16,289 bases of DNA from a virus, in the IMG/VR virus record IMGVR_UViG_3300028920_000020; one strand, given 5' to 3'. Numbering within the stretch: the stretch's first letter is position 1; each line of letters starts with the position of its first letter. The position numbers were made by a program, and so were the translations under genes. The notes under the pieces were generated by a model. That model was not told the origin of the DNA, did no database searches, and was given only the letters and a program-made list of their open reading frames with translations. This document shows positions 2,532 through 16,289 of this stretch, piece by piece.

Positions 2532-3287
2532 ATGAAAATAGCTGTAGCAAGTCAAAAAGGCGGGGTCGGTAAAACCACAACATCACTCTCTCTAGCTTCT
2601 TATTTAGCCCGTCAAGGTAAAAAAGTCCTACTTGTTGATACTGATAGCCAAGCCAACGCCTCCAAAGTCCTTATACCTGAATATCTGAAACTGAAAAGAG
2701 ACGAAACCATTTGTGCCACTATCCTTGATCGGAAGCCCCTTGTAGTTTATGAGACAGAAACCCCAAACTTAGATCTAGTCCCCTCTCACATCCTTCTATC
2801 AAATGCCGACACCGAGCTTACCATCGCTAAGGATCACCGGGAATCAAGGCTAAAAACAGAGCTGGATAAAATAGCTGATAGATACGACTTTATCTTTTTA
2901 GACTGTCCCCCATCGCTTGGCTGGCTTACAATCAACGCATTTACAGCAGTAGACAAAATTTTGGTTGTTGTTAGTCCGGGTTACTTCGAGCTTGATAGTG
3001 TCGTCCAGCTTAGCAAAACCCTTGCAGAGTGCCGGGAATACTACAACCCCACCCTTGACCTTTTAGGAATGTTGTTTGTGATGGCCGATCCAACAGTCAA
3101 CAGCAGAGAGAGTTTAAAGATACTTAGACAAACTTACTCCGGCTCGGTATTCAATACCATCATCCCAAGAAACACCGACCTAAGAGACGCCCACTTTCAG
3201 AAACAAGACATTTTTGCTTATAACCCAAATTCAAAAGGTGCTTTAAGTTATAAGAGATTAGTGGAGGAAATATGGCCAAAAAAGTAA
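2532..3287 (+). CDS. parA: ParA/Soj-family partition ATPase, 251 aa
   Basis: N-terminal deviant Walker A (MKIAVASQKGGVGKTTTSLSLA), VLLVDTDSQANAS, FIFLDCPPSLG (Walker B region), and typical ParA length. Confidence 0.9.
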   Translation: MKIAVASQKGGVGKTTTSLSLASYLARQGKKVLLVDTDSQANASKVLIPEYLKLKRDETICATILDRKPLVVYETETPNLDLVPSHILLSNADTELTIAKDHRESRLKTELDKIADRYDFIFLDCPPSLGWLTINAFTAVDKILVVVSPGYFELDSVVQLSKTLAECREYYNPTLDLLGMLFVMADPTVNSRESLKILRQTYSGSVFNTIIPRNTDLRDAHFQKQDIFAYNPNSKGALSYKRLVEEIWPKK

Positions 3288-3700
3288 TCCCCGACACGAT
3301 GGTTAATGAGTTAAGCGGTGGAAGTAGCCTTTTCACCCGCTCCCCTACCCCTAAACCTATGCCTACGGCTTCATCTAAGCCCCCCAAACGCACGATAAAG
3401 AGGAAAGTGGCAAGTAATACCCCAATCAAGAAAGAAAGCGAGCAATCAATCAATCATGATAGCGTGATAGCACTGATTCGGTCAGCAGTTAAAGAAACCG
3501 GCAAAGAAACCTCCTATCATCGACTAACAACAGAAGAAAAATCAAAGTTGGAGGACGTTATCTACACTTATAAGAAGCAGGGGTATCGGTTATCAGAGAA
3601 TGAAGTCGCCAGAATTGCCATAAATTGGTTGATGGAGGATTACAAACAGAACGGCAAAAATAGCATTTTAGATTTAGTTATTGAAAGCTTGAAAGCATGA
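3272..3700 (+). CDS. Small ParA-partner or putative centromere-binding protein, 142 aa
   Basis: Overlaps the parA 3' end by 16 nt, with GGAGGA SD 5-6 nt upstream. It has a disordered K/P/S-rich N-terminal third and a helical C-terminal domain. The call rests on position; no ParB HTH or ParB-N motif was seen. Confidence 0.4.
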   Translation: MAKKVIPDTMVNELSGGSSLFTRSPTPKPMPTASSKPPKRTIKRKVASNTPIKKESEQSINHDSVIALIRSAVKETGKETSYHRLTTEEKSKLEDVIYTYKKQGYRLSENEVARIAINWLMEDYKQNGKNSILDLVIESLKA

Positions 3701-3715
3701 TAGCAAGCAATCACG

Positions 3716-4048
3716 ATGGATAATATTAAAGACATAGTAACCAATCGTAAACCACAAGCGGTGCTGGTGCTTGAAAGAGGCTGGAAAAATAGGGGATATG
3801 TATCAATCAGCAACAAGATTCTCTATAACACCAAACTTGAGCCGGTTGCTAAGCTTCTTTACTGGTATTTACTAACCCGGTGTTTTCAAAAAAAAGATTG
3901 CTTCCCCTCATTGGACATAATTCACAAAGATTTAGGGATAACACCAAAGACAATCATCAAATACAAAAAAAGCCTTATAGAAGCGAAGCTAATCAAAGTT
4001 ACAAGAAGGGGATGGGGGAAGACAGATGTGTATACCCTCAAATTTTAG
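3716..4048 (+). CDS. Winged-helix DNA-binding protein, 110 aa
   Basis: The pattern ...AKLLYWYLLTR...CFPSLDIIHKDLGITPKTIIKYKKSLIEAKLIKVTRRG... is typical of phage/plasmid wHTH proteins (FPS-x3-I-x6-G-x2-x-T). Confidence 0.6.
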   Translation: MDNIKDIVTNRKPQAVLVLERGWKNRGYVSISNKILYNTKLEPVAKLLYWYLLTRCFQKKDCFPSLDIIHKDLGITPKTIIKYKKSLIEAKLIKVTRRGWGKTDVYTLKF

Positions 4049-4148: not shown

Positions 4149-4649
4149 ATGGATAAAAACATCTATCAAAACAAAAACTGGATCGTTAGTCGGAGCTGGC
4201 TATTAAAGCAACTGGCACCACTTAAAGGCCCGAAACTATCGATTCTTATTTCCTATCATTTGTTTAGGGCTTCGGGGATATGGCCAACAGTAAGAGATTT
4301 GGCGGATTCTACTGGTTTGGGCAAAGCTGGGGTATCAAAATATTATCGGGAAATGGTTAAGGCTGGCTATTTAGAGCAACCAATTTGTGCTGTTTGCGAC
4401 AAAAGAACGACTATCAGCTTATTACACCGGCACCACGTAAAACCAAGAAGGGACGGGGGAGACGAATCAGAAACTAACTTTTTGAATGTTTGTAAATCGT
4501 GCCACAACAAAATCGAGCCGAGAAAAAGAATAGACAAGGTTTTGAAGGCTAAAAATATACTTGGGCTTTTTGAGAAAGAGGCTGGAATAAAAATGCCGGC
4601 GAGGATAACCAGACCACTGGCAAAGTTTTTGGCCAATAGACTTTACTAG
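4149..4649 (+). CDS. wHTH-HNH endonuclease fusion, 166 aa
   Basis: N-terminal wHTH-like segment (WPTVRDLADSTGLGKAGVSKYYREMVKAGYL). C-terminal HNH core CAVC...HRHHVKPRRDGGDESETNFLNVCKSCHNKIE (Cys pairs, His-His, Asn, His). Confidence 0.8.
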   Translation: MDKNIYQNKNWIVSRSWLLKQLAPLKGPKLSILISYHLFRASGIWPTVRDLADSTGLGKAGVSKYYREMVKAGYLEQPICAVCDKRTTISLLHRHHVKPRRDGGDESETNFLNVCKSCHNKIEPRKRIDKVLKAKNILGLFEKEAGIKMPARITRPLAKFLANRLY

Positions 4650-4863: not shown

Positions 4864-4940
4864 AAATCTTTCCTTCTGATAACCACCCAAACACCGATCA
4901 GGACAAGACCGGCGATGATCATAATTCTTGATATCGGCAT
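4860..4940 (-). CDS. 26-aa single-pass membrane peptide (MPISRIMIIAGLVLIGVWVVIRRKDF), start-stop coupled to the upstream Zn-ribbon gene
   Basis: The minus-strand ATG (4940-4938) overlaps the TAA stop (4942-4940) of ORF 4940..5182 as TAATG. It has a hydrophobic core flanked by R and RRK, with stop TAG at 4862-4860. Confidence 0.4.
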   Translation of the reverse strand: MPISRIMIIAGLVLIGVWVVIRRKDF

Positions 4941-5182
4941 TATTTAATTCTCTTAATGGCCTTTTCTAGTGTTGCCAGTTTCTTTTTTAGTTCCGCTTTT
5001 CTTAATTCTTTACGTCGTTGTCTTTGATAAGCATTGATTTTCTCTCGGCTCTTTTTTCGGTACTCTTTTTTCCCCTCTAAGTATTTTTTTCGGTTGGTCT
5101 TTTTCCAATGTTCGTGTTGACACCGGTCAGAGCAAAATTTAGGCCTTTTTGTCTTTTTTTTACAAACTATACATCTATTCAT
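4940..5182 (-). CDS. FCS/TRASH-like zinc-ribbon protein with a highly basic helical tail, 80 aa
   Basis: CIVC-x10-FCSDRC matches the C-x2-C...FCS-x2-C zinc-ribbon signature. The remainder is K/R/E-rich (KKYLEGKKEYRKKSREKINAYQRQRRKELRK...). Confidence 0.6.
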   Translation of the reverse strand: MNRCIVCKKKTKRPKFCSDRCQHEHWKKTNRKKYLEGKKEYRKKSREKINAYQRQRRKELRKAELKKKLATLEKAIKRIK

Positions 5183-5193
5183 TTTTCTTATAA

Positions 5194-5299
5194 AACCAGT
5201 CCCCTATCGGGGGTGTCTGTCCCCAAAATTGATATTATAGGCACAAATAACCAGTCCCCTATTGAATAGGGGAGGGGATTGAATAACCGAGCAATAACC
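5194..5299. promoter_or_regulatory. Divergent control region with direct repeats, a 19-bp perfect palindrome and AATAACC repeats
   Basis: AACCAGTCCCCTAT at 5194-5207 and 5249-5262 (55 bp apart). CCCCTATCGGGG at 5201-5212. Perfect palindrome TCCCCTATT-G-AATAGGGGA at 5255-5273. AATAACC at 5246, 5282 and 5293. Minus-strand TATAAT at 5239-5234. Confidence 0.55.
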
Positions 5300-5339
5300 G
5301 CCATTGGCTAATTTTAACACCTATGGCGTAATATTAAGA

Positions 5340-5998: not shown

Positions 5999-6412
5999 TT
6001 ATTTTTCCTTTTTTTCATATTTTGGTGAACGAGTAACGGGCCGGGGACAAATCAAGTGATTGCCATAGGAATAAACCATAATGGCGTACTTGGAAGACCT
6101 GCCACTACCCAATTTTATGGGAAGTGAGTGATAGTTTGCCATAAAGACTTTTTCTCCCTTTTTTAGATCACGGTATATCTTGATCAAGGGGATGTTAGTT
6201 TTTGTCGCAAATTCTTTTGGGGTATAGATGACGGTAATCAGCTTTTTGGCGACAGTTTCACCCATGGCTAGATAAAAATTTTTCCCGGCTTTTGTTATTC
6301 CGTTTTCTTCCAACAGACCTTTTTTGTCCCATTGCCAGATTGTTTGGGGGGTGACGTTTTTAGCTTTTGCGATTTGCTTGACGTTACACAGCCCAATGCT
6401 AATTGTTTGCAT
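5999..6412 (-). CDS. DNA-binding regulator with two tandem excisionase/MerR-type HTH motifs, 137 aa; candidate repressor
   Basis: Two HTH motifs: VKQIAKAKNVTPQTIWQWDKKGLL and TPKEFATKTNIPLIKIYRDLKKGEK. The gene is transcribed divergently from the replication operon. Confidence 0.65.
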   Translation of the reverse strand: MQTISIGLCNVKQIAKAKNVTPQTIWQWDKKGLLEENGITKAGKNFYLAMGETVAKKLITVIYTPKEFATKTNIPLIKIYRDLKKGEKVFMANYHSLPIKLGSGRSSKYAIMVYSYGNHLICPRPVTRSPKYEKKEK

Positions 6413-6417
6413 ATCTT

Positions 6418-6447
6418 ATTTTAAGCCTTTTGATAACCAGTTGTCAA
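6418..6447 (-). promoter_or_regulatory. Minus-strand promoter TTGACA-18 nt-TAAAAT ending 5 nt before the ATG at 6412 (leaderless candidate)
   Basis: Minus-strand read: TGC-TTGACA-ACTGGTTATCAAAAGGCT-TAAAAT-AAGAT-ATG. The -35 lies in the imperfect palindrome TTGATAACCAGTTGTCAA (6430-6447). Confidence 0.5.
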
Positions 6448-6564
6448 GCACAAGCCTAAAAAGAAGCCCAAAACATAGTTTTCTCTATGGTGTTGAATAG
6501 GGTATTCCGTTTATCAGAAAATAGTATATAGCCAAAAAAGGCAATTAAAAATTTAGAAAAAATT

Positions 6565-6858
6565 ATGGAAGAAATAGAGAAAGACCACTTTACCACCACG
6601 GATGTTTCCACGGCTTCGGCTTTGTTGGCGACTGGAAAAGTTTTGTTTGACGGCTTGAAAGAATCAGGAAATGGCAGAAAGAATATATGTCTAACCCCCA
6701 GACAGACAGCTTTGGAGCTTTACAGCGACTACAGGAGAGGGGAATTGATGGTAAACGCCAGTGACAACGGCCGATGGGTACAGAAGTTGAAGAAAGAAAT
6801 ATTTGGAGGAATCAGTAGTTTAAGAAATGGAGGCCAAGATGGTGAAATCGAAATCTAA
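6565..6858 (+). CDS. Small protein, 97 aa, DUF5659-like
   Basis: The pattern F-T-T-x-D-x-x-x-A-S-A-L-L-A-x-G...NICLTP...YRRGELMVNA...LKKEIF resembles the DUF5659 family common in phage and metagenomic elements. This comes from recollection only. Confidence 0.45.
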   Translation: MEEIEKDHFTTTDVSTASALLATGKVLFDGLKESGNGRKNICLTPRQTALELYSDYRRGELMVNASDNGRWVQKLKKEIFGGISSLRNGGQDGEIEI

Positions 6859-7483
6859 ATTTACACAAATTCCCAACGATATAATCGAAGCTTTGTGCCG
6901 GACTAATCTAACAGCCACCGAGCTTTCCATAGCTTTTATTGTATTGAGAATGACCTATGGTTATCAAAGAAAATCCAGCGAAATCAGTATCAGTTACCTG
7001 ATGAAAGCGACAGGAAAATCACGCCCTTCAATTACTAAAATGACCAATCAACTAGTTAAGAAGGCGATACTAGTTAAGCAGACTTTACTAGGTAGAACTT
7101 CAAAACTAGGTATTAACCCAAACATAGGGCAATATTCGCATACTAGTAAAGTAGACGATACTAGTAAAGTAGACGATACTGAACTAGTTAAGCAGACTTT
7201 ACCCAATAAAGAAATAAATAAAGAGAGAAAGAAAAAGAATCGCCATTTGAATAAGCAAGACATGGAGAAGATTGCCAACGACTTACGTGTGGTGGTGACG
7301 ACGGTAGAGTATGAATACCAAAAAATGCTTGATTGGCTGGCGTCAACTGGCAAGGTGCGAAAAGATTACGTTGCGACACTCCGAAACTGGATAAGGCGAG
7401 GGATGGAGGATGGCCGAATTAAACCAATTAAAAGTTATGAGGAGCAAGTCCGGGACGAAAACCCAGACATAAAAATTATATGA
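6839..7483 (+). CDS. Lambda O-like (Phage_rep_O N-terminal domain) replication initiator, ~214 aa
   Basis: FTQIPNDIIEALCRTNLTATELSIAFIVLRMTYGYQRKSSEISISYLMKATGKSRPSITKMTNQLVKKAIL matches the Rep-O wHTH signature. The ORF-track start is 6827, but ATG 6839 has GGAGG 5 nt upstream. The gene contains iterons internally. Confidence 0.8.
   Translation: MVKSKSKFTQIPNDIIEALCRTNLTATELSIAFIVLRMTYGYQRKSSEISISYLMKATGKSRPSITKMTNQLVKKAILVKQTLLGRTSKLGINPNIGQYSHTSKVDDTSKVDDTELVKQTLPNKEINKERKKKNRHLNKQDMEKIANDLRVVVTTVEYEYQKMLDWLASTGKVRKDYVATLRNWIRRGMEDGRIKPIKSYEEQVRDENPDIKII
7051..7240. repeat. Candidate origin of replication: five or more ACTAGT(T/A)AAG iterons followed by an A/G-rich, AT-rich tract, inside the initiator gene
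   Basis: ACTAGTTAAG at 7051, 7069 and 7183. ACTAGTAAAG at 7142 and 7160. A 20-mer ACTAGTTAAGCAGACTTTAC at 7069-7088 and 7183-7202. An 18-bp tandem TACTAGTAAAGTAGACGA at 7141-7158 and 7159-7176. AATAAAGAAATAAATAAAGAGAGAAAGAAAAAGAAT at 7205-7240. Confidence 0.65.
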
Positions 7484-9111
7484 AGCCAATAGATTACGCC
7501 AAAGCCTACCTACAACTAGGCTGGTCACTTATACCAATTAAGCCAGATACCAAGACACCGCCTATAAAATGGGCAGAGTATTGCGACACCAAAGCTACAA
7601 TTTTTGAAGTAGAGGAATGGTTGAGCAAAGGATGGTGGTTAGCAGTCGTCACCGGTGATATATCGGGATTGGTGGTGGTAGACGACGACAGGATTAAACA
7701 CAACCTCAAAGAGTGGGGCTTTGATTCTCCTGTAGTAGCCAAAACCCAAAGTGGCGGAAAGCATTACTACTTCAAATATGACCGAGAGATACACAGCCAC
7801 CAAAACCACGAGATTTTTGTTGACCTCAAAGGCTGGCATAGTTATTGCCTATTACCTCCATTCAAGGGTAGAACATGGATCAAGTCGCCAACCAAGAACA
7901 TCGACAAACTCAAACCTTTATCAGATGAGATTGTCAGATTGCTCAATTCCGACAAAAAGGAGCAAAACAGCGACCCCCTAAGAATGGCGGATTTTGTTGA
8001 CATACCCGATGGCAGTCGAACAGATAGTCTTTATCGGATAGCCATGTCTACCTTCCAAAAAATGCCAAAGGATGACGCTTTGAGAGTATTGGCAGGAGTC
8101 AATGCCACCTACAACCCACCACTGACAGAAAAAGAGTTTAAGTATCAAACCTCAAGGGCATTGCAGAAAGTAACCATCGGGACAAAAGTCCCAGTGGTTG
8201 CACGGGACAATAGTTCCACGCAGAAAACTCCATCCGTTATCTATTCAAAAATGTCAGACACCGAGATTGACGATTATGAGACTAGACCCTATCTCCCGGT
8301 AGGATTATCAAAACTAGACAGGGAGTTTCCGTTTCCGTCTGGTTGGTATGTGATTTTAGGCAACCCCGGAAGTGGCAAAAGTTTCATGTCATTGTGGATG
8401 GCTCGTCAGTTCTTTGTGAAGCACAAGAAAAAAAGTGTTTTATTCACCTTGGAGATGTCAGAAGAAGCCTTGAGACCACGGATAATGCAATCGTGGAGTG
8501 ACTTAACCTTGGATCAGTACAGGGGAGGAGTTGACACTAGGAGAGCAAAAGAGCTGATGAAAAAAGACGCCCTTGAGATTTACCCTTTTGGACAGGCCGA
8601 TTCGAGTTATCAAACTCCTGCTAATTTCAAAAAGGACTTTGAGGAGTATTACCAAAAAGGGATCAGGGTGTTTTTCTTCGACCACTTTCACGAACTAGAG
8701 GGAACGACAGACAATAACACTAATCCCCAAGTAACCGAAGCATGGAGTAAAACCTTCGGCGATATATCCAAAGAATATGACGACGTGTGGTTGTTTGTAT
8801 TCGCCCAACCAAACAAAGGCGGAGCAAGAAAAACCATATTGAGGAGAGAAGATGTAGGCGGATCGGGCAAGCTAACCCAGAAATGTGATTTTGTCTTATC
8901 AATTAACCGAAAGGTAAAGAATGGATTAGGAGGAGAGGTGGAAGTAATAAGCGAAGACAGAAGTGTCATTTTATACGTTGACAAATCAAGATTCTTTGAT
9001 CGCACGCACTTTGGTATCAGGCTTCACTTCGACGACACAGGAAATTTTAGAGATCCCAACGAACCACCCACACCGCAAGAGTCGGGATTTAATCGTTCAT
9101 ATAAAGACTAG
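7480..9111 (+). CDS. Bifunctional primase-polymerase (Prim-Pol) / DnaB-like (RecA-fold) replicative helicase, 543 aa
   Basis: N-terminal Prim-Pol motifs: GWSLIPIKPDTKTPPIKW, GLVVVDDD (metal-binding acidic motif) and TQSGGKHYYF. C-terminal Walker A LGNPGSGKSF and Walker B VFFFDHFHEL. ATGA overlap with the initiator gene. Confidence 0.85.
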   Translation: MKPIDYAKAYLQLGWSLIPIKPDTKTPPIKWAEYCDTKATIFEVEEWLSKGWWLAVVTGDISGLVVVDDDRIKHNLKEWGFDSPVVAKTQSGGKHYYFKYDREIHSHQNHEIFVDLKGWHSYCLLPPFKGRTWIKSPTKNIDKLKPLSDEIVRLLNSDKKEQNSDPLRMADFVDIPDGSRTDSLYRIAMSTFQKMPKDDALRVLAGVNATYNPPLTEKEFKYQTSRALQKVTIGTKVPVVARDNSSTQKTPSVIYSKMSDTEIDDYETRPYLPVGLSKLDREFPFPSGWYVILGNPGSGKSFMSLWMARQFFVKHKKKSVLFTLEMSEEALRPRIMQSWSDLTLDQYRGGVDTRRAKELMKKDALEIYPFGQADSSYQTPANFKKDFEEYYQKGIRVFFFDHFHELEGTTDNNTNPQVTEAWSKTFGDISKEYDDVWLFVFAQPNKGGARKTILRREDVGGSGKLTQKCDFVLSINRKVKNGLGGEVEVISEDRSVILYVDKSRFFDRTHFGIRLHFDDTGNFRDPNEPPTPQESGFNRSYKD

Positions 9112-9576: not shown

Positions 9577-9719
9577 CACCGCAAGGGAGAATTATCACGC
9601 CCAAAGTCTGGCAGAGAATGAGAGAGGAGTGGTTGAAAGGAAAAATCACACCTCCCTCTTTCATGGCCTCAAATGCAAGTTTACCCATTCAACCGAGTTG
9701 CAAACCCTTTTCCATATAA
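9573..9719 (+). CDS. Possible 48-aa ORF (MTPQGRIITPKVWQRMREEWLKGKITPP...), ATGA-coupled to the membrane peptide
   Basis: ATG 9573-9575 overlaps TGA 9574-9576. This is the tail of ORF-track entry 9441..9719. No motif recognised. Confidence 0.25.
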   Translation: MTPQGRIITPKVWQRMREEWLKGKITPPSFMASNASLPIQPSCKPFSI

Positions 9720-9732
9720 GCCAAACTACACT

Positions 9733-9966
9733 ATGAGCAAATCAACTACTTATCAAGTCAATATTACTTTTCGACCAACCCAGGCTGAAACGCTAAAAAA
9801 ACAAGCGGAAGCAGAGGGGCGGAGTTTGAGTAATCTCGTTAGACACATCTGTGACAATTATTTACGGGAGAGGAAACAGCTGTTACTGCCTACCTCTCCC
9901 ACCACGGAGGGAGGGGGGAAAGGATCGCAATACAATCCAGCCACCCCCTTCTCCCCGACCTTATAA
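9733..9966 (+). CDS. Ribbon-helix-helix (CopG/Arc/MetJ-type) DNA-binding protein, 77 aa
   Basis: From internal ATG 9733, YQVNITFRPTQAETLKKQAEAEGRSLSNLVRHICDNYL is a textbook beta-strand/helix/helix RHH pattern. The tail is P/T/G-rich and looks disordered. Confidence 0.7.
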   Translation: MSKSTTYQVNITFRPTQAETLKKQAEAEGRSLSNLVRHICDNYLRERKQLLLPTSPTTEGGGKGSQYNPATPFSPTL

Positions 9967-9978
9967 ATTAAAAAAATT

Positions 9979-10266
9979 ATGAAAAAGAAAAACAACACTT
10001 GTGACATTTGTCAGAAGAACGAATGGAATTTTATGGTGACATTCTATAACGGCCAAACGGCTAAAATTTGCCTTGATTGTTACCCCATCTTTAGAGAAGT
10101 GAATAACAACCTGATGGTGAAAGACTATCATCAAAAACTCAAAGACATTCGAGACGGCAAGCCCCCCCGTAAAAAGATGACAAAAAAACAAATCAAGCAA
10201 ATTGACGCTGAAATTGAAAAAGAATTTGGGAAAAAGTTAATTGATGAAATCAAAAATGAAGCATAA
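9979..10266 (+). CDS. Zinc-ribbon protein 1 of a tandem triplet, 95 aa
   Basis: CDIC-x19-CLDC followed by a K/E-rich helical tail. Confidence 0.6.
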   Translation: MKKKNNTCDICQKNEWNFMVTFYNGQTAKICLDCYPIFREVNNNLMVKDYHQKLKDIRDGKPPRKKMTKKQIKQIDAEIEKEFGKKLIDEIKNEA

Positions 10267-10537
10267 GTTTTCAAAATGCCACGGCTGTAAAAAACGTTTC
10301 AGGACTGTTCATCTATGGAAGTCTAATCACCCCCTTGCCGCCCCAGCTAAGTTTTTTTGCGAAGCCTGCTGGATGGAGAAGACGGGTATCAACGTCAAAA
10401 TGTTGCTGAGGTATTACGGCTTTGCTAAGAAAAAAGGCAGTACCGAGTATTTAGGCAAGATTTACGACAATAGCACTGATTACGAAAAATATAAGTTCAT
10501 TGAAGCAATAGGGGAGGAGTCAAATGTCGCTATGTGA
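10244..10537 (+). CDS. Zinc-ribbon protein 2 of a tandem triplet, ~97 aa
   Basis: CHGC-x22-CEAC. The ORF-track start at 10241 is a TTG and the first ATG is at 10244. Overlaps the previous gene by 23 nt. Confidence 0.6.
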   Translation: MKSKMKHKFSKCHGCKKRFRTVHLWKSNHPLAAPAKFFCEACWMEKTGINVKMLLRYYGFAKKKGSTEYLGKIYDNSTDYEKYKFIEAIGEESNVAM

Positions 10538-11096
10538 AGTTTGTAAAATTAAGAAACCAGCCAGCCTGATTTTTGATCATACAGGGACTAGACACGCTGT
10601 TTGTGACAAATGTCGACCACAGATTACCGTTCATGCAATTCTTGCAGAGATGGCTATTCAAAAATCTTTTCTTGAAGAAAAACTTTTTAAATATATCCAA
10701 TATCTCAAAGAAAACCCTCATTCCCAAAACACATACCAAATATCACAAAGCTTCAACGAAGATTTCGAAACGATGATGTCTCGATTAAGTCAAATTATCC
10801 TTGTCAAACATTTTGGCAGAGTGGCAAAATCCGATCAGGGATGGATTCAGCCCGATGTCCCACTTCCGGTCATAAAACCCAAAACCAAGCCTAAAAAGAC
10901 AAAAAAACCCCTTGTTAGCGACGATTTAAAGCCCAAAAAAACCAAGCCTAGTACAAAATTACCTAAAAAAGACAAGGAATTATTACACGCCGACAGGGAA
11001 ACTAAACCCAAAGCTAAAAAGACACCCAAAAGCAACAAATATAATCTTACAGATTCAACAAAAAAGACATGGCAAAGAGCAAACAAAAAAACTTAG
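10524..11096 (+). CDS. Zinc-ribbon protein 3 with a long K/P-rich low-complexity tail, 190 aa
   Basis: CEVC-x19-CDKC with GGAGGAG SD 4 nt upstream. The C-terminal third is KPKTKPKKTKKPLVSDDLKPKKTKPSTKLPKKDK...KPKAKKTPKS, resembling a histone H1-like tail. Confidence 0.7.
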   Translation: MSLCEVCKIKKPASLIFDHTGTRHAVCDKCRPQITVHAILAEMAIQKSFLEEKLFKYIQYLKENPHSQNTYQISQSFNEDFETMMSRLSQIILVKHFGRVAKSDQGWIQPDVPLPVIKPKTKPKKTKKPLVSDDLKPKKTKPSTKLPKKDKELLHADRETKPKAKKTPKSNKYNLTDSTKKTWQRANKKT

Positions 11097-11602
11097 GGGG
11101 CAGGCCTTCCAAGTACAAACCAGAATATTGCGATCAAGCTATTAAATATTTCAACATTGAGCCTCATTTTGAGACACCAGTTGAGACACAAAAAAAAGGC
11201 GTCGTCGAGACAAAGATTAAATTTATCCCAGCAGATCTTCCAACACTTGCCGGCTTTGCTAAAAAGATCGGTGTTTCCAAAGATACTTTGAATGAATGGC
11301 GTAAGGTATACCCAAAGTTTTCCGTTGCTATTAAAAAGGGAAAGACCGCCCAAGAGCATATTTTGATCACAAACGCCCTAAAAGGTGGCTACGCCCCGGC
11401 CTTCTCTATTTTCTTTGCCAAGAACAACATGGGATGGAAAGATAAACAGGAGCAGTCAGTAAACATGACCGTTTCCCCTTACGACAACCTATCAGATGAT
11501 CAGCTTGACGAGGTGTTAGAGAAGAAGTTCGGTGAATGGCAGGCAGATAAGAAACGATCAAAACAATTATTAGAATCTAAACAGGAGGCAATCAATGGAT
11601 AA
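11069..11602 (+). CDS. terS: Small terminase subunit, HTH type (Sf6 gp1-like), 177 aa
   Basis: The N-terminal GGRPSKYKPEYCDQAIKYF, then LAGFAKKIGVSKDTLNEWRKVYPKFSVAIKKGK (HTH), then FFAKNNMGWKDKQE. Together these match the conserved GRP-x-x-Y-x-PE ... W ... F ... and LKN...W+DK pattern of this TerS family. Confidence 0.7.
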   Translation: MAKSKQKNLGGRPSKYKPEYCDQAIKYFNIEPHFETPVETQKKGVVETKIKFIPADLPTLAGFAKKIGVSKDTLNEWRKVYPKFSVAIKKGKTAQEHILITNALKGGYAPAFSIFFAKNNMGWKDKQEQSVNMTVSPYDNLSDDQLDEVLEKKFGEWQADKKRSKQLLESKQEAING

Positions 11603-11837
11603 CACATTAAAAGCTTTACTTGAAGCCTTGGAGGTTATGGCCAGTCGTAAGCAGGTATGGATTGTTAGTTACGATAAGAAAACCAATAGTGCGGTCACCG
11701 AAGATGGCAGACCCTTTAATCCGCTAATCGCACTATTCGATTGTCTAGTGGTTTATAAGTCCGACATACCCCTCAATGTCTTAAAAGAATTACAAGACAA
11801 ACAAGAGTTTTTTATTAACAAATTACAAATTAAATAA
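11595..11837 (+). CDS. Hypothetical protein, 80 aa
   Basis: AGGAGG SD at 11583-11588. Overlaps the terS stop by 8 nt. Confidence 0.6.
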   Translation: MDNTLKALLEALEVMASRKQVWIVSYDKKTNSAVTEDGRPFNPLIALFDCLVVYKSDIPLNVLKELQDKQEFFINKLQIK

Positions 11838-11842
11838 ACAAT

Positions 11843-12271
11843 ATGCCAAACAAAAACAACACAAAAACACCTCTAACTACAGAGCAACAGATTCACGCCA
11901 ACGAGTTAAGCCGATCCACTGTCACCGGCTTCAAAGACGGCCAATTTATTAGAGAAGATGTGGCCACTCGCTTCGAGAGACAAAGAAACGAAGCCAAAGC
12001 CATGACAAACAAAAAGCACAGTTGGAAACAGGTTAAAACTCAACGCCAGTTGAACATGGAGGAAAGAGCCAAGGAGAGCCAATCTTTTTATGATTTAAGA
12101 CAGGCGAGACAAGAGCAAGCCCAATCCGCCCTTGATAGATTAGCCAAGCAAGTAAAGTCCGAGATCCCCACACCCAAGGCGTCAGTCATGAATGCAAAGG
12201 AACGCCCGGCAAATTATGAATATTTGTCAGATACAGAAAAGAGACTTATTGATTCAGCATTAAAACAATGA
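11843..12271 (+). CDS. Hypothetical protein, 142 aa, charged and helical
   Basis: Closed ORF in an operon context. Q/R/E/K-rich central region. Confidence 0.6.
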   Translation: MPNKNNTKTPLTTEQQIHANELSRSTVTGFKDGQFIREDVATRFERQRNEAKAMTNKKHSWKQVKTQRQLNMEERAKESQSFYDLRQARQEQAQSALDRLAKQVKSEIPTPKASVMNAKERPANYEYLSDTEKRLIDSALKQ

Positions 12272-12504
12272 CCAACCCAAATCCTATTTCACCATCGACA
12301 ATCATGACCGAGAACGCCGTTTTAGAACGTCTTGATATTATCCAAGATCAGTTTGCACATTCATCTAACGATGTTCAGGCACGATTAGACGAACAGAAAC
12401 TAATTCATGATTTTATCAGGGCTTTAACAATCCCCGGTGGAGTAAGAGAACCTAAGAAATGTGCCGAAGCTTTGGTTGAAAGCACACATTTCATCAACAT
12501 ATAG
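12268..12504 (+). CDS. Hypothetical protein, 78 aa
   Basis: ATGA overlap with the upstream gene. Confidence 0.55.
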   Translation: MTNPNPISPSTIMTENAVLERLDIIQDQFAHSSNDVQARLDEQKLIHDFIRALTIPGGVREPKKCAEALVESTHFINI

Positions 12505-12575: not shown

Positions 12576-12728
12576 ATGACTAAATCAAAAGTATTTCGAA
12601 TCATATCGCTTAAAGGTTCAGCTCCGGATGCCCCAATTAAAAAGGGTTTACCAAGCAAGAAACATTTAGCTTTTCTAGCAAAACAAAACCGCAACCCGAA
12701 GAAACAATTTCCAGAGGGAGGTAAATAA
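12576..12728 (+). CDS. Possible 50-aa basic protein (MTKSKVFRIISLKGSAPDAPIKKGLPSKKHLAFLAKQNRNPKKQFPEGGK)
   Basis: Below the ORF-track cutoff. Its TAA (12726-12728) overlaps the ATG of the 444-aa gene as TAATG, which would fill an otherwise 223-nt gap. Confidence 0.35.
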   Translation: MTKSKVFRIISLKGSAPDAPIKKGLPSKKHLAFLAKQNRNPKKQFPEGGK

Positions 12729-14062
12729 TGGCATTTGCTAACGCATATTACGACGAGCAACAAAATCAAAACATTGCTCCTACTCTATCTCAACTACAGG
12801 GCAATTTCTCAGAACCTCTAAATGCTGGTGTAGCCGCCACAGGCACAGGTGACGCCGACACTTACTGGAATCAAGGCTGGAACATGGGTTTTAATAATCC
12901 TTCTACTGGCTATTCAGGAAGTGACGTAAATGAACAAGCTGGCTATATTCAAGGTCAGAAAGACTATTGGCTAAGAAATCCCCAAACAACCACTAGCCCT
13001 ACAACGAATAACAATCCTCAACCAACCACCCCCCAACCGACAAACAACACCTCAGGCGAACTTTCATTTGACGATATTTACAACCAGGTTTATCCTGGAT
13101 GGGGAAGACAGGAGGCATATAACGACTGGGTGGCAAAGGGAAAGCCCCAGCCCACAATCGGAACAGGTGCTAATGGTCAACTTTCCGAAGAACAACTAGC
13201 TCAACAACTAACTAATGATTTAAATTCAGCCTATCAGCCAGCTATGGATGTTTTAGGTCAACAAGAGCAATACCTTCGTGATGCTCAACCCGCTTCCGAA
13301 AAAGCCATTCAAGATCAATTTTCTTTACGCCGAGGCGAACAAGAGGGAGATTGGAAAAGTGCTCAAGAACAATCCGAGTTAACCCAGCGAAAACTTTGGG
13401 ATGAAAAAGAAAACGTACTCGACCAATCACGCCGGTTATACGATGAGTTACGCCGAGGAGCAAGACAGCGATTTGGTGGTTCTTCATCCGCAGGTGAGGC
13501 AGTCAATACTCTTTTGGGTTTGGAACAACAGCGACAAATGGGAGACACCAAAAGAACTTACATGAACAACATTGCAGAGTGGGAACGATCAAAAGCCGAC
13601 ACCGAGAGAGCTTATAAGCAAAATGTAGCCCAGCTTAATCTGGCAAAAGACGAAGCAATTCGAAAATCTCAAGACGCTTTTAATGCCGGTATGCTTCAAA
13701 TTGCTCAAAGTAAAGCAGGACTAATGACCGAAAAAGGGCTTCGACGACTAGACCTACTAACCAACCTCCGTGATTCGATTATGAAGGCTCAAGCAACAGC
13801 TCAGGAATGGCAGGATAAACTTTCATACCAGCGGGAATTAGCTGAGATGAATTTTGCCTACAGACTCCAGGAAATTCAAGCAATGGCTAAATACAAGACC
13901 TATGCCCCAACCAAATCAAGCTACTCCACAGTCGACGTTGATGGCACAACTAAAGTATTTGATAAAACCACGGGGCAAGTTAGCGATATAGGTAGCGCCC
14001 AGGGCCAAATTGGTTTGCCTTCAACATATAAACAGTATTACGGACTTGATGAGGAGGTTTAA
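12728..14062 (+). CDS. 444-aa protein of unknown function: Q/N/G-rich N-terminus, P/T-rich linker, long coiled-coil C-terminal half
   Basis: Very strong SD (GAGGGAGG). Features include NNNPQPTTPQPTNNT and a heptad-like charged region from about aa 170 to 400. No enzymatic motif recognised. Confidence 0.8.
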   Translation: MAFANAYYDEQQNQNIAPTLSQLQGNFSEPLNAGVAATGTGDADTYWNQGWNMGFNNPSTGYSGSDVNEQAGYIQGQKDYWLRNPQTTTSPTTNNNPQPTTPQPTNNTSGELSFDDIYNQVYPGWGRQEAYNDWVAKGKPQPTIGTGANGQLSEEQLAQQLTNDLNSAYQPAMDVLGQQEQYLRDAQPASEKAIQDQFSLRRGEQEGDWKSAQEQSELTQRKLWDEKENVLDQSRRLYDELRRGARQRFGGSSSAGEAVNTLLGLEQQRQMGDTKRTYMNNIAEWERSKADTERAYKQNVAQLNLAKDEAIRKSQDAFNAGMLQIAQSKAGLMTEKGLRRLDLLTNLRDSIMKAQATAQEWQDKLSYQRELAEMNFAYRLQEIQAMAKYKTYAPTKSSYSTVDVDGTTKVFDKTTGQVSDIGSAQGQIGLPSTYKQYYGLDEEV

Positions 14063-16289
14063 TGCCCTCATTCAACGAACTCTTTCAAACAGCCCTTAGC
14101 AAGCTAGTCAATTCCAAGCCAGTATCAACAGTTCGAAGTGCTGGTCAAAACGTCCTTCAAAGTGCTAAGCAGGGCTACGCTCAATGGCAAGCTAAACCCT
14201 ACAATCAACTGGTTAAAAATATCGGCTCGACTATATCTCAAAAGGTAGAGTCTGCTATCCCGGGTGGTTACGAAGGAGCAAAGCAACGTCTATCTCAAAC
14301 CAAACCCATTCAATACTCACCGTTTGGCTTTATTAACGAAGCCCCACGCAACGCCTCAGTCTTGTTTGGTAAGAACGCAGACATAGCCGAACACGGCCTT
14401 AGGGGGATGATAGACCCCATCGGTTTAGCCAATAAAACCACTCAATATCTCAACCCTTCCTATAATCAATTATTCCAACCTACCACTCAAAGAGAAAAAA
14501 CAGCTAGAAAGGTAGGACAATCAATATCCGGAACCATAGCCACTGCTCCTCTTGGTGGGCCAAATATGGCCGTAAATGTTGGTAGGCGTGCTATTCAGGG
14601 AACTTTACTTGGTACCGGCATGGGGCTAGCTGGTAATGCTTTATCAGGCAATCCCTTAACCCAAGATCTAGACAAATCAGCACTTCAGGGTCTCTCCAAC
14701 TCATGGCAACTTTCCGTAACCAACCTTATAGCCGACAAGATAGGAAGTTTTATACCTAAACTCAAAGGCACAACGTCAGGACAGTTGGATTTAACTGGCC
14801 AACTTCTAAAAAACCAAGCCAAGATGGGAGCAGACACCAAAGCTCTACTCACCAAAACAGCCAAAGACTTATTTTTAAGAGCGATGGTAGAAACAGGGAC
14901 GGAGACGACATGGTTTTCAGCCTTCGATGAAGAAGATAAAAGAAAGTTTCTAGAAAAGTGGTGGTCTAACCTTCCGGGTAACTTCTTAGGTAACGTATTT
15001 TTTGGCAGTTTAGCCTTTACTAAAAGGGCCAGCATTGACGCCAACCCCCAACTAATTATGGACGCTAAAATAGCCTTTCAGAAGACCATGAAGAATATGT
15101 TTGGTGGCAGTCAATACTCTCAACGTGGTGGTGTTGATCCTAAGTATGTGTTTGGAGAAGAAAAACTACCTTGGGAAAAACAAGATCCCAACTCTCCCAA
15201 ACGTAACAGGAAAGAACCCTTCACCGCCAAGCGTGGTGCTGGTAGCTATTCACAAGATCCCACCGTCGACAACCCACTTTTAAAACAAGCTAAACAGGAG
15301 TCTTACAAGTTCGATGACAGAGCTGACATTGACAGAATCGTCACCCTTGGAGAATTACACGAGTATGAGGTAGGCAAGAAGCCAATCAAACAGCTAATCA
15401 ATCGAATCCTTAAGCCATTAAACAACGCCCCGGACAACATTAAGGAAATGATGACGGAATGGAACACCAAACTGATGAAAGGCAAAGTGAAGGCTAATGT
15501 TTTAGCTAAAGACTTTTCCAACATTGATGCCGAGACAGGCTGGAAGTTGACCCAATACATGCAAGACCCAACCCCAGCCAATGCTAGAAAGCTGAAGTTC
15601 GATGTTGAGAAATACGCCCCGGATATTAAGAAGACACGAAAGCTTTTAGACTTCTATTACGACCAAGCTCAAAAGAATGGGGTTGATCTAGGCTACAGAA
15701 AAGACTATATGCCACAGGTTTGGGAGGAAACACCCGGACAGATTGACGCCAAAGTTAGAGGTCTAGGAACTAAACCAGCATTTGCCCAAGAAAGAAGGAT
15801 CCCAAATTATCAGGAAGGTTTAGAACTGGGGCTAACCCCACGCTACACACACCCCGGCCAGCTACTCGCTGATTATCGATACAAACTAAGCAAATCAGTG
15901 GCTAACAAGAGACTAATGGCCAAGCTCTTAGATACAGGCTATTTAGTGCCTTCTAGTGAAGCCCCAGCTGATTGGAAACAAATCGAAGCACCATATCTCC
16001 CCAAAGCTACTATGACGATGGCAGACAGGGAAATTGTCAGCAACTATTCAGCCCCTCCATCTATTGCCGATTCACTTAACTCAATCTTTACCAACGACAA
16101 ATCAGGCCTTGGTGAGCTGGTTGAAATGACAGCAAAACTATCAAGCAAAATCCAAGAAGTTAGACTAACTGGCGGTATCGGCCCACTTAACTCTTTTACC
16201 GTCGGTCAGATGATTAAGGAAGTTTATGCCGGCAGGTTAAAGTCCCCTCTCACTTCTTTTGTTAGAGCTTGGTCGCCAAAACAAACCGA
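14062..16289 (+). CDS. N-terminal 742 codons of the ~1,164-aa wrap-around protein (continues at 1..1394); unknown function, glycine-zipper hydrophobic segment
   Basis: ATG 14062 overlaps the preceding TAA as TAATG, with GAGGAGG SD 4 nt upstream. I translated every codon from 14062 to 16289 and found no stop. The segment SISGTIATAPLGGPNMAVNVGRRAIQGTLLGTGMGLAGNALSG is reminiscent of tape-measure or ejection-protein hydrophobic stretches. Confidence 0.85.
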   Translation, partial: MPSFNELFQTALSKLVNSKPVSTVRSAGQNVLQSAKQGYAQWQAKPYNQLVKNIGSTISQKVESAIPGGYEGAKQRLSQTKPIQYSPFGFINEAPRNASVLFGKNADIAEHGLRGMIDPIGLANKTTQYLNPSYNQLFQPTTQREKTARKVGQSISGTIATAPLGGPNMAVNVGRRAIQGTLLGTGMGLAGNALSGNPLTQDLDKSALQGLSNSWQLSVTNLIADKIGSFIPKLKGTTSGQLDLTGQLLKNQAKMGADTKALLTKTAKDLFLRAMVETGTETTWFSAFDEEDKRKFLEKWWSNLPGNFLGNVFFGSLAFTKRASIDANPQLIMDAKIAFQKTMKNMFGGSQYSQRGGVDPKYVFGEEKLPWEKQDPNSPKRNRKEPFTAKRGAGSYSQDPTVDNPLLKQAKQESYKFDDRADIDRIVTLGELHEYEVGKKPIKQLINRILKPLNNAPDNIKEMMTEWNTKLMKGKVKANVLAKDFSNIDAETGWKLTQYMQDPTPANARKLKFDVEKYAPDIKKTRKLLDFYYDQAQKNGVDLGYRKDYMPQVWEETPGQIDAKVRGLGTKPAFAQERRIPNYQEGLELGLTPRYTHPGQLLADYRYKLSKSVANKRLMAKLLDTGYLVPSSEAPADWKQIEAPYLPKATMTMADREIVSNYSAPPSIADSLNSIFTNDKSGLGELVEMTAKLSSKIQEVRLTGGIGPLNSFTVGQMIKEVYAGRLKSPLTSFVRAWSPKQT
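16163..16289. repeat. Right copy of the 127-bp terminal direct repeat (identical to 1..127)
   Basis: See the left copy. GACTAACT begins at 16163. Confidence 0.95.

Follow-up and report, generated by a model that had tools for sequence, protein, structure and literature searches.

The stretch of DNA analysed here, referred to as the window, is a viral sequence of 16,289 nucleotides (IMG/VR record IMGVR_UViG_3300028920_000020). It encodes a ParA-type partition ATPase, a lambda-O-like replication initiator, a primase-helicase, a small terminase (TerS) and, downstream of the latter, two large proteins of 444 and 1,164 amino acids (aa). An original prediction had described an orphan TerS on a closed 16-kb circle with no gene for a large terminase (TerL), portal or capsid, and had proposed that the circle is an episomal phage satellite.

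The ends of the window form an exact 127-bp repeat (bases 1-127 = 16163-16289), as is typical of assemblies from a circular or concatemeric template, and without it the unit is 16,162 bp long. Joining the ends gives an uninterrupted open reading frame (ORF) of 1,164 aa (14062-16289, then 128-1394). Because it is collinear over its whole length with a 1,165-aa homologue on another contig, L014, at 69% identity, the junction must be real rather than a chimera. In a different sample the linear contig L015 spans the junction at 100% identity, and a contig with the same proteins is 16,303 bp long, that is, 16,162 + 141, in line with the k141 names of ENA contigs. The end repeat and these two contigs together imply that the template was circular or concatemeric, so that the predicted closed circle is borne out.

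Small terminase and missing packaging genes

The 177-aa product of the ORF at 11069-11602 (plus strand) matches the Pfam family PF16677 (GP3_package) with 47.4 bits, against a cutoff of 29.4, over model positions 1-104 of 105. It matches the TerS PHROGs 3064, 309 and 606 at E values of 9e-20 to 1e-11, and 293 records of cultured phages; annotations among those listed include terminase small subunit, terminase and DNA-packaging protein. When a profile of its family was compared with the PDB, the top matches were the Sf6 gene 1 protein (3hef, 4dyc; E 3e-4, 23.8 bits), a weak but specific result. Judged by its sequence, the ORF encodes a genuine small terminase of the P22 gp3/Sf6 gp1 type, as had been proposed from an Sf6 gp1-like signature; with terminase-family matches of this strength it is not just a generic helix-turn-helix (HTH) regulator.

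Its closest phage counterparts, 59-60% identical, are the TerS proteins of phages L021 and L022 (37-43 kb), whose genes lie directly upstream of that for TerL; in L021 genes of the SU10_portal and SU10_adaptor families come after the terminase pair. Relatives in IMG/VR are at most 43% identical. TerL is the next gene after terS in L021, L022 and L011; in the window the next ORF, which occupies the position of TerL in relatives, is only 80 aa long. Family scans of all ORFs and six-frame tblastn searches with the TerL of related phages found no TerL anywhere on the circle, making TerS an orphan. The 80-aa ORF is the first of three small ORFs (80, 142 and 78 aa; 11595-12504, plus strand) that lie between terS and the two large genes and have no Pfam or PHROG match. 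They are kept in relatives: by tblastn the 142-aa and 78-aa ORFs are 59% and 65% identical to L010, respectively, and the 78-aa ORF is 62% identical to L014. A TerL remnant in this interval was considered and rejected, there being no six-frame similarity to related-phage TerL.

No window ORF matched a TerL, portal, major capsid protein (MCP), tail or lysis family in Pfam, PHROGs or NCBIfam. Searches of the circularised window (tblastn) with the TerL, portal, MCP, adaptor and ~650-aa post-adaptor ORF of related phages were equally empty (all E > 0.1), in agreement with the predicted absence of virion and lysis genes of these kinds. Nor is a recombinase present among the window ORFs (Pfam, PHROGs). 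Capsid-size redirection families (cpm, Sid, rcm and similar) gave no match in Pfam or PHROGs, a weak test given how poorly these genes are conserved. About half of the window ORFs have no family match, and outside the annotated genes the unassigned ORFs are at most 190 aa long. With partition and replication genes but no complete virion set, the element is not a phage-plasmid of the P1/N15/SSU5 type.

The HNH nuclease that the original prediction had linked to TerS does exist, at 4149-4649 (plus strand; PF01844, 35.1 bits), and has an N-terminal winged HTH (wHTH) domain, itself recognised by weak matches. Its supposed role as the helper of a cos-type terminase found no support, however. The gene lies 6.4 kb from terS and bears the extra wHTH domain, a homologue is absent from L010, L014 and L019 (tblastn), no HNH Pfam family is present among the called genes of L027, and the similarity to the terminase-adjacent HNH protein of phage L004 is at the level of the motif only (E 0.004). 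TerS proteins of the PF16677 type are, moreover, those of headful (pac) packagers, not of cos packagers. Since the HNH gene is unlinked to terS and unconserved, and TerS is of the headful type, the cos idea is unsupported.

A virion gene pair shared with podophages

The largest protein of the window, here called the giant, is encoded on the plus strand across the junction of the circle. Its N-terminal 742 codons (14062-16289), recognised from the reconstruction of the circular ORF and its collinearity with L014, belong to a protein of the internal virion or ejection class, and its C-terminal part (1-1394) holds most of the region that profile matches relate to internal virion protein D. The giant is 69% and ~40% identical to its homologues in related elements. 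Direct BLASTP comparison with the giants of phages gave nothing convincing, and the similarity emerged only from profile searches. A profile built from the window giant and its five closest relatives (A1) matched at least 3,018 cluster representatives among 1.84 billion proteins. It scored 51.3 bits with internal virion protein D of Desulfovibrio phage ProddE, 20.8 with Syn5 gp45, and 218.7 and 123.8 with the giants of phages L004 and L007; a second-iteration profile raised these scores to 59.6, 23.4, 549 and 233 bits. Shuffled controls gave at best 2.3 bits in 200 trials with A1, and no more than 2.9 bits across both profiles (200-300 shuffles). The matching region, residues ~600-1010 of the giant, corresponds to the gp16-position proteins of the Autographiviridae phages ProddE and Syn5. 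Two members of the giant family, P0119 and P0155, match phrog_6651, 'internal virion protein' (E 3.9e-25), and P0119 also matches 42 phage records, most of those listed being 'internal virion protein (D)', including those of Syn5, P60, HTVC011P and ProddE. Searches of GTDB genomes and IMG/VR with patterns from the N-terminal part brought up no relatives, and a metagenome scan added only two short contigs. The giant is a member of the gp16-position internal-virion-protein class by its similarity and gene position, as distinct from its structure. Some longer members of the family carry inserts, either PBECR1 toxin-like nucleases (P0137, P0146) or a ParB C-terminal-like domain (P0133), an arrangement known from the 'polyvalent protein' type of effector that phages inject; the window giant has no such insert.

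Immediately upstream, at 12728-14062 (plus strand), lies the gene for the 444-aa protein, a virion-module protein, by its homologues, gene context and predicted structure, and a putative partner of the ejection protein. Its AlphaFold2 (AF2) model (pLDDT 66) has a disordered N-terminus rich in Q, N, T and P, a long α-helical hairpin formed by helices 154-249 and 254-389 (about 95 and 135 residues), and a small β C-terminus. Foldseek searches with this model returned generic coiled-coil hairpins from the PDB and low-TM matches from BFVD, among them entries for tape-measure and 'DNA transfer protein', but no capsid, portal or terminase in either collection. A fold of these three kinds was rejected on this basis, although the coiled-coil matches are not diagnostic of identity; the family profile (A2) found nothing useful in the PDB. 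All 38 homologues are unannotated. One phage-borne homologue carries the UniRef label 'candidate division CPR3 bacterium', the sole hint as to a host.

In every recovered context a giant ORF of about 1,070-1,580 aa lies downstream of the 444 gene (that of L010 is cut by the contig end), and the two are direct neighbours at every locus but L028, which has one ORF between them. Phage contigs account for five of these loci (L001, L004, L007, L011 and L028), four of them of 37-67 kb and one, L011, of 15 kb, which together bear SU10_MCP, SU10_adaptor, TerL, HNH and CHAP-lysin genes. The giants of L007, L028 and L004 sit in the tail or ejection part of the structural module. In L007 the order is adaptor followed by ORFs of 646, 45, 392 and 1148 aa, mirroring gp11, gp12 and gp13-16 of T7, and in L028 an SLT protein is encoded by a separate gene downstream of the giant. 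The likeness to the gp14-gp15-gp16 core of T7 thus comprises the match of the giant to gp16-position proteins of ProddE and Syn5, the T7-like order of L007, and the mostly helical structure predicted for both proteins. There are differences, however, in that the giant has no lytic transglycosylase domain and no relation of the 444-aa protein to gp14 or gp15 was detected at the sequence level.

As far as homology and gene order can tell, the 444 and giant genes are a conserved virion gene pair of SU10-like podophages, and encode neither capsid, portal nor TerL. The two proteins, which the original prediction had called unrecognisable while allowing that a capsid, portal or TerL fold might be hidden in them, are instead a helical hairpin and an internal-virion-like protein, respectively; and the earlier view that nothing structural is encoded on the circle has to be given up, the giant being a homologue of internal virion proteins. 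As the pair belongs to the virion module of podophages, the window element would contribute virion (ejection) proteins of its own. Among the full-size phages akin to the candidate helpers, homologues of the Cpn60 chaperonin are encoded by L022 (696-2595) and L028 (23384-24287), and L022 also encodes Cpn10.

A lineage of capsid-less elements

The same pair occurs in small elements that, like the window, have no capsid or portal gene. Beside the 16,162-bp circle with its ParA and its TerS (PF16677) as sole terminase subunit, these are L010 (15.1 kb; large serine recombinase, DnaB and a TerS of the Terminase_2/phrog_51 family only), L019 (13.7 kb; serine recombinase, TerS and a TerL-like protein, phrog_2, 6.7e-26), L014 (13.3 kb; AAA_22 ATPase, DnaB and a TerL-like protein) and L027 (15,494-bp circle; tyrosine integrase, primase, DnaB and TerL). 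All five have the 444-like and giant genes, with non-structural genes after the giant in every case. The L027 sequence, a JGI contig of 15,494 bp, is a trimmed closed circle: the ORFs at its ends (14781-15494 and 1-84; 238 + 27 aa) join in frame, and the resulting 265-aa AAA_22 ATPase is collinear with a 265-aa protein of L014 (41% identity, E 8e-70). L027 is therefore a second complete capsid-less element. L014 also encodes, at 9891-10799 on the minus strand, a 302-aa protein that matches a DNA topoisomerase PHROG (phrog_6247, E 1e-73) and has no counterpart in the window.

Neighbour-joining analysis of the 444 family places the copies from the small elements in a single clade, apart from the five phage-borne copies, with a bootstrap value of 100/100. 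A distinct clade with a shared capsid-less gene set is not what a one-off deletion would produce. The ORFs of the small elements are intact despite 30-70% divergence, and no module of the clade is as well conserved as the virion pair. Full-size phages have the nearest counterparts of their terminase genes, the TerL of L019 being 58% identical to that of L022. At the position equivalent to window terS, L010 (8338-8832) and L019 (5839-6285) encode TerS proteins of Terminase_2/phrog_51, unlike the PF16677 protein of the window. These different families at one position suggest that TerS genes have been swapped within the lineage, perhaps to fit different helpers.

We conclude from these comparisons that the small elements are a diverged but consistent lineage of 13-16-kb capsid-less elements with interchangeable maintenance modules and variable terminase content. 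It was fair to say that a ParA cassette replaces the usual integrase, since the relatives L010 and L019 bear a serine recombinase, and L027 a tyrosine integrase, instead. The idea that TerS alone hijacks a helper suits the window and L010, but does not extend to the whole lineage, as L014, L019 and L027 have a TerL of their own.

Proposed helper dependence and its alternatives

What could a plasmid gain from a small terminase and internal virion proteins? Both are of use only with a capsid, which this element cannot make, and a helper-dependent satellite is for that reason the most economical reading. On balance we favour the view that the window is the complete genome of a phage-derived satellite that depends on a helper and lives as a partitioned plasmid. 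The capsid, portal, tail and packaging motor would probably be borrowed from the helper virus, and we infer that packaging is redirected by the element's own TerS. The episomal satellite of the original prediction thus gains indirect support from the orphan TerS, the closed circle and the absence of capsid genes; its HNH/cos component gains none.

In the absence of a helper, such an element would replicate from the iterons in repO and be segregated by ParA. Should an SU10-like podophage of the L021/L022 type be present in the same cell, the element's TerS would bind a pac site on the element and recruit the helper TerL. Headful packaging of concatemers from a pac site is expected because TerS proteins of the PF16677 type belong to headful packagers, and helper-built capsids of ~40 kb would each take up about 2.5 copies. 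If the capsid is sized for roughly 37-43 kb, as the contigs of L021 and L022 indicate, this number of copies would fill it, and no redirection of capsid size would be needed. The element's own internal virion proteins would be loaded into the particles and would form or modify the conduit for DNA ejection on the next infection, after which the terminally redundant multimer could recircularise and re-establish itself as a plasmid. More tentatively, and with rather less confidence than in the helper dependence itself, we propose a new class of satellites defined by a self-encoded DNA-ejection apparatus and terminase subunits in place of capsid remodelling. These would exist in plasmid (ParA), serine-recombinase and tyrosine-integrase versions, parasitise SU10-like podophages of uncultured bacteria, and replace the internal core proteins of the helper.

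Several points weigh against the helper-dependent satellite. T7 gp16 is not among the matches of the two-iteration giant profile, and no chain in the PDB matched the giant profile, a difference from the T7 system. The AF2 model of the giant, made from a six-sequence alignment, is too poor for fold comparison (pLDDT 38.6), so that its N-terminal ~400 residues are ruled out as portal or capsid only by sequence and by a predicted all-helical structure. An exact 41-mer of terS has no match in the IMG/VR viral collection, nor was a helper identified in the same samples. ParB and parS, described below, are putative assignments made by position alone. We infer encapsidation and the identity of the helper, and likewise the pac site, the function of ParB and parS and what the ejection proteins do; that a satellite should need such proteins of its own is a further difficulty.

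The element might instead be a cryptic plasmid, the decaying remnant of a temperate podophage or phage-plasmid, with TerS and the virion genes as leftovers that have no role in transfer. Such an origin would suit the close counterparts that all its phage-like genes have in full-size phages, the TerL that some relatives possess where the window has nothing but an 80-aa ORF, and the failure of the terS 41-mer to find the element in IMG/VR. We consider it unlikely, however, because five diverged elements have kept the same capsid-less set with long ORFs intact (1,164 aa; 69% and ~40% identity), and form a 100%-supported clade distinct from the phage copies. The exchange of maintenance modules (ParA, serine recombinase, tyrosine integrase) and of TerS types among them likewise fits a functioning lineage better than independent decay.

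Conservation of the virion pair above all other modules of the clade would also be expected of a plasmid that uses gp16-like and hairpin proteins, together with TerS, to poison core assembly or packaging in invading podophages, as a means of defence or exclusion. Interference with helpers through virion-protein mimics is indeed known for satellites and prophages. That the proteins serve interference in place of the plasmid's own transfer is nevertheless quite improbable: no window ORF matches known defence families (defence-system cargo was rejected on the same ground), and the full TerS and TerL pair of L019 and L027 points to real DNA packaging. Interference and hitch-hiking can also co-exist, and are not mutually exclusive.

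That half of the ORFs lack a family match would leave room for capsid, portal and motor genes of an autonomous, very small virus, but we regard this as very doubtful. The unassigned ORFs are all of 190 aa or less, too small for a portal or HK97-fold capsid protein; the 444-aa protein is a helical hairpin and the giant falls in the internal-virion-protein class; and packaging by a terminase implies a portal and an HK97-type capsid, neither of which was found even with the proteins of related phages. Least probable of all is that the window is one segment of a multipartite phage with TerL, portal, capsid and tail on a second, co-packaged or co-transmitted molecule, for although its genes complement the missing part and a TerS without TerL would make sense if TerL were on the partner, its replication and partition system is complete and independent, its relatives have integrases and sometimes their own TerL, the related full-size phages hold all modules, including their own 444/giant pair, on one genome, and we know of no multipartite tailed phage.

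If a helper-dependent satellite is accepted, its nearest likeness is to the VEIMEs (integrative mobile elements encapsidated in virions) described from marine viromes in 2022 (PMC9618062), which lack capsid genes and are packaged as concatemers into full-size capsids. VEIMEs have a TerS related to that of co-occurring phages, a primase or helicase and sometimes an HNH protein, and one subgroup has ParA/RepA and no integrase, suggesting plasmid-like, integrase-less satellites (PMC9618062). Compared with this description, the window shares the 5-25-kb size, the lack of major capsid genes, TerS, HNH and plasmid-like genes. Encapsidation and the concatemer packaging mode are documented for VEIMEs, whereas the window is known here from its genes and such packaging is proposed for it. 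The window further differs in its phage lineage, that of SU10-like podophages from non-marine-looking metagenomes, and in its ejection proteins: no VEIME is reported to have internal virion or ejection proteins, and the term 'internal virion' occurs 0 times in PMC9618062.

The gene order also echoes, as had been remarked, that of Staphylococcus aureus pathogenicity islands and other phage-inducible chromosomal islands (SaPIs/PICIs), with regulators, an initiator and helicase-primase with adjacent origin, small genes and terS, and no capsid genes. SaPIs/PICIs redirect the TerL of the helper by means of their own TerS, a homologue of phage TerS, and the window too encodes a TerS. The window differs from these islands in having ParA instead of an integrase or att site, in that no capsid-size redirection genes were found, and in its two additional large virion-internal proteins; some of its relatives, moreover, have their own TerL. 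With capsid-forming PICIs (cf-PICIs) the lineage shares the principle that part of the virion gene set is its own and the rest comes from the helper, and L019 and L027 have their own TerS and TerL as cf-PICIs do. The parts are reversed, however: cf-PICIs have their own genes for capsid, portal and head-tail connectors and take only tails from the helper, of which the window lineage is the inverse. P4 can persist as an autonomous plasmid with its own primase-helicase, all capsid and tail proteins being supplied by the helper. In contrast to the window, with its own TerS, ParA partition and ejection proteins and no Sid/Psu-like genes, P4 relies entirely on the cos site and terminase of its helper, and encodes an integrase and the Sid/Psu factors for capsid size.

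Known satellites of tailed phages contribute nothing structural, or remodel the helper capsid, or make their own capsid and steal tails. If our reading is right, a satellite that supplies injected internal proteins and packaging specificity, and takes capsid, portal, motor and tail from the helper, would divide the work between parasite and virus in a new way. Plasmid-borne satellites are very few, a 2025 review (PMC12282955) giving one demonstrated case, of an inovirus, and the element would be an example from the tailed phages. The novelty would lie in the unusual cargo of the satellite, an ejection apparatus of its own, together with the plasmid maintenance of this member. Within the collection of papers searched, none combines 'satellite', 'helper phage' and 'internal virion protein', and 'phage satellite' and 'ejection protein' co-occur in passing only, with neither term in a title or abstract. 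The clade can be seen as a natural experiment in which the same cargo is combined with three maintenance strategies, with or without TerL, and it offers a functional handle on a giant phage protein family of at least 3,018 cluster representatives that is uncharacterised.

Replication, partition and neighbouring genes

The ParA-type partition ATPase of the predicted cassette is encoded at 2532-3287 (plus strand) and matches PF13614 with 168.5 bits and phrog_164 at E 3.8e-61; its matches to the partition RepA/ParA families of NCBIfam fall below the equivalog cutoffs. The next gene (3272-3700, plus strand) overlaps the parA stop in a translationally coupled position, and its 142-aa basic product is by this position a putative ParB-like centromere-binding adaptor; it has no match among Pfam, PHROGs, NCBIfam or defence families. 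Two tandem 14-bp repeats detected by TRF upstream of parA (2499-2526) are a possible operator or parS. A 110-aa winged-helix protein follows at 3716-4048 (plus strand), with an HTH_36, replication-initiator-like N-terminal domain (PF13730, 42.5 bits; phrog_270, E 7e-13) and a homologue in L010.

The replication operon includes the lambda-O-like initiator RepO (6827-7483, plus strand; PF04492, 64.8 bits; TIGR01610, 51.8 bits against a cutoff of 45.5). Within repO a repeat search found arrays of 18-bp iterons (ACTAGTWAAGNAGAC...; 7051-7203) that form a putative lambda-type origin. The adjoining gene (7480-9111, plus strand) encodes a fusion of a primase-polymerase (PF09250, 49.6 bits, residues 7-136) with a DnaB-like helicase (PF03796, 51.8 bits, residues 275-481), which confirms the predicted initiator and primase-helicase. 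A divergent pair of HTH regulators had also been proposed at 5999-6858, and here only one half could be recognised: the minus-strand ORF at 5999-6412, divergent from the replication operon, is weakly MerR-like (PF00376, 26.2 bits against a cutoff of 28.2; phrog_2474, E 3.8e-5), and the 97-aa ORF at 6565-6858 had no match in the family scans. A homologue of the MerR-like regulator, 38% identical, adjoins the recombinase in L019.

Downstream of the primase-helicase gene, a ribbon-helix-helix protein of the CopG/Arc type is encoded at 9673-9966 (plus strand; PF07878, 31 bits, with weak matches to Arc-like PHROGs). After it, just upstream of terS, at 9979-11096, are three consecutive, paralogue-like ORFs of 95, 98 and 190 aa, each of which starts with CxxC...CxxC zinc-ribbon-like motifs and has no family match; their counterparts in L010 are at 7618-8215. 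The only minus-strand gene besides the MerR-like regulator, at 4940-5182, encodes a highly basic 80-aa protein with an N-terminal Cys-rich motif, which has a weak similarity to the zinc-finger portion of one HNH PHROG (E 3.7e-4). Between this gene and the ORF that begins at 5304, an exact 14-bp direct repeat (AACCAGTCCCCTAT) occurs at 5194-5207 and 5249-5262, 55 bp apart, and may be an operator or binding site.

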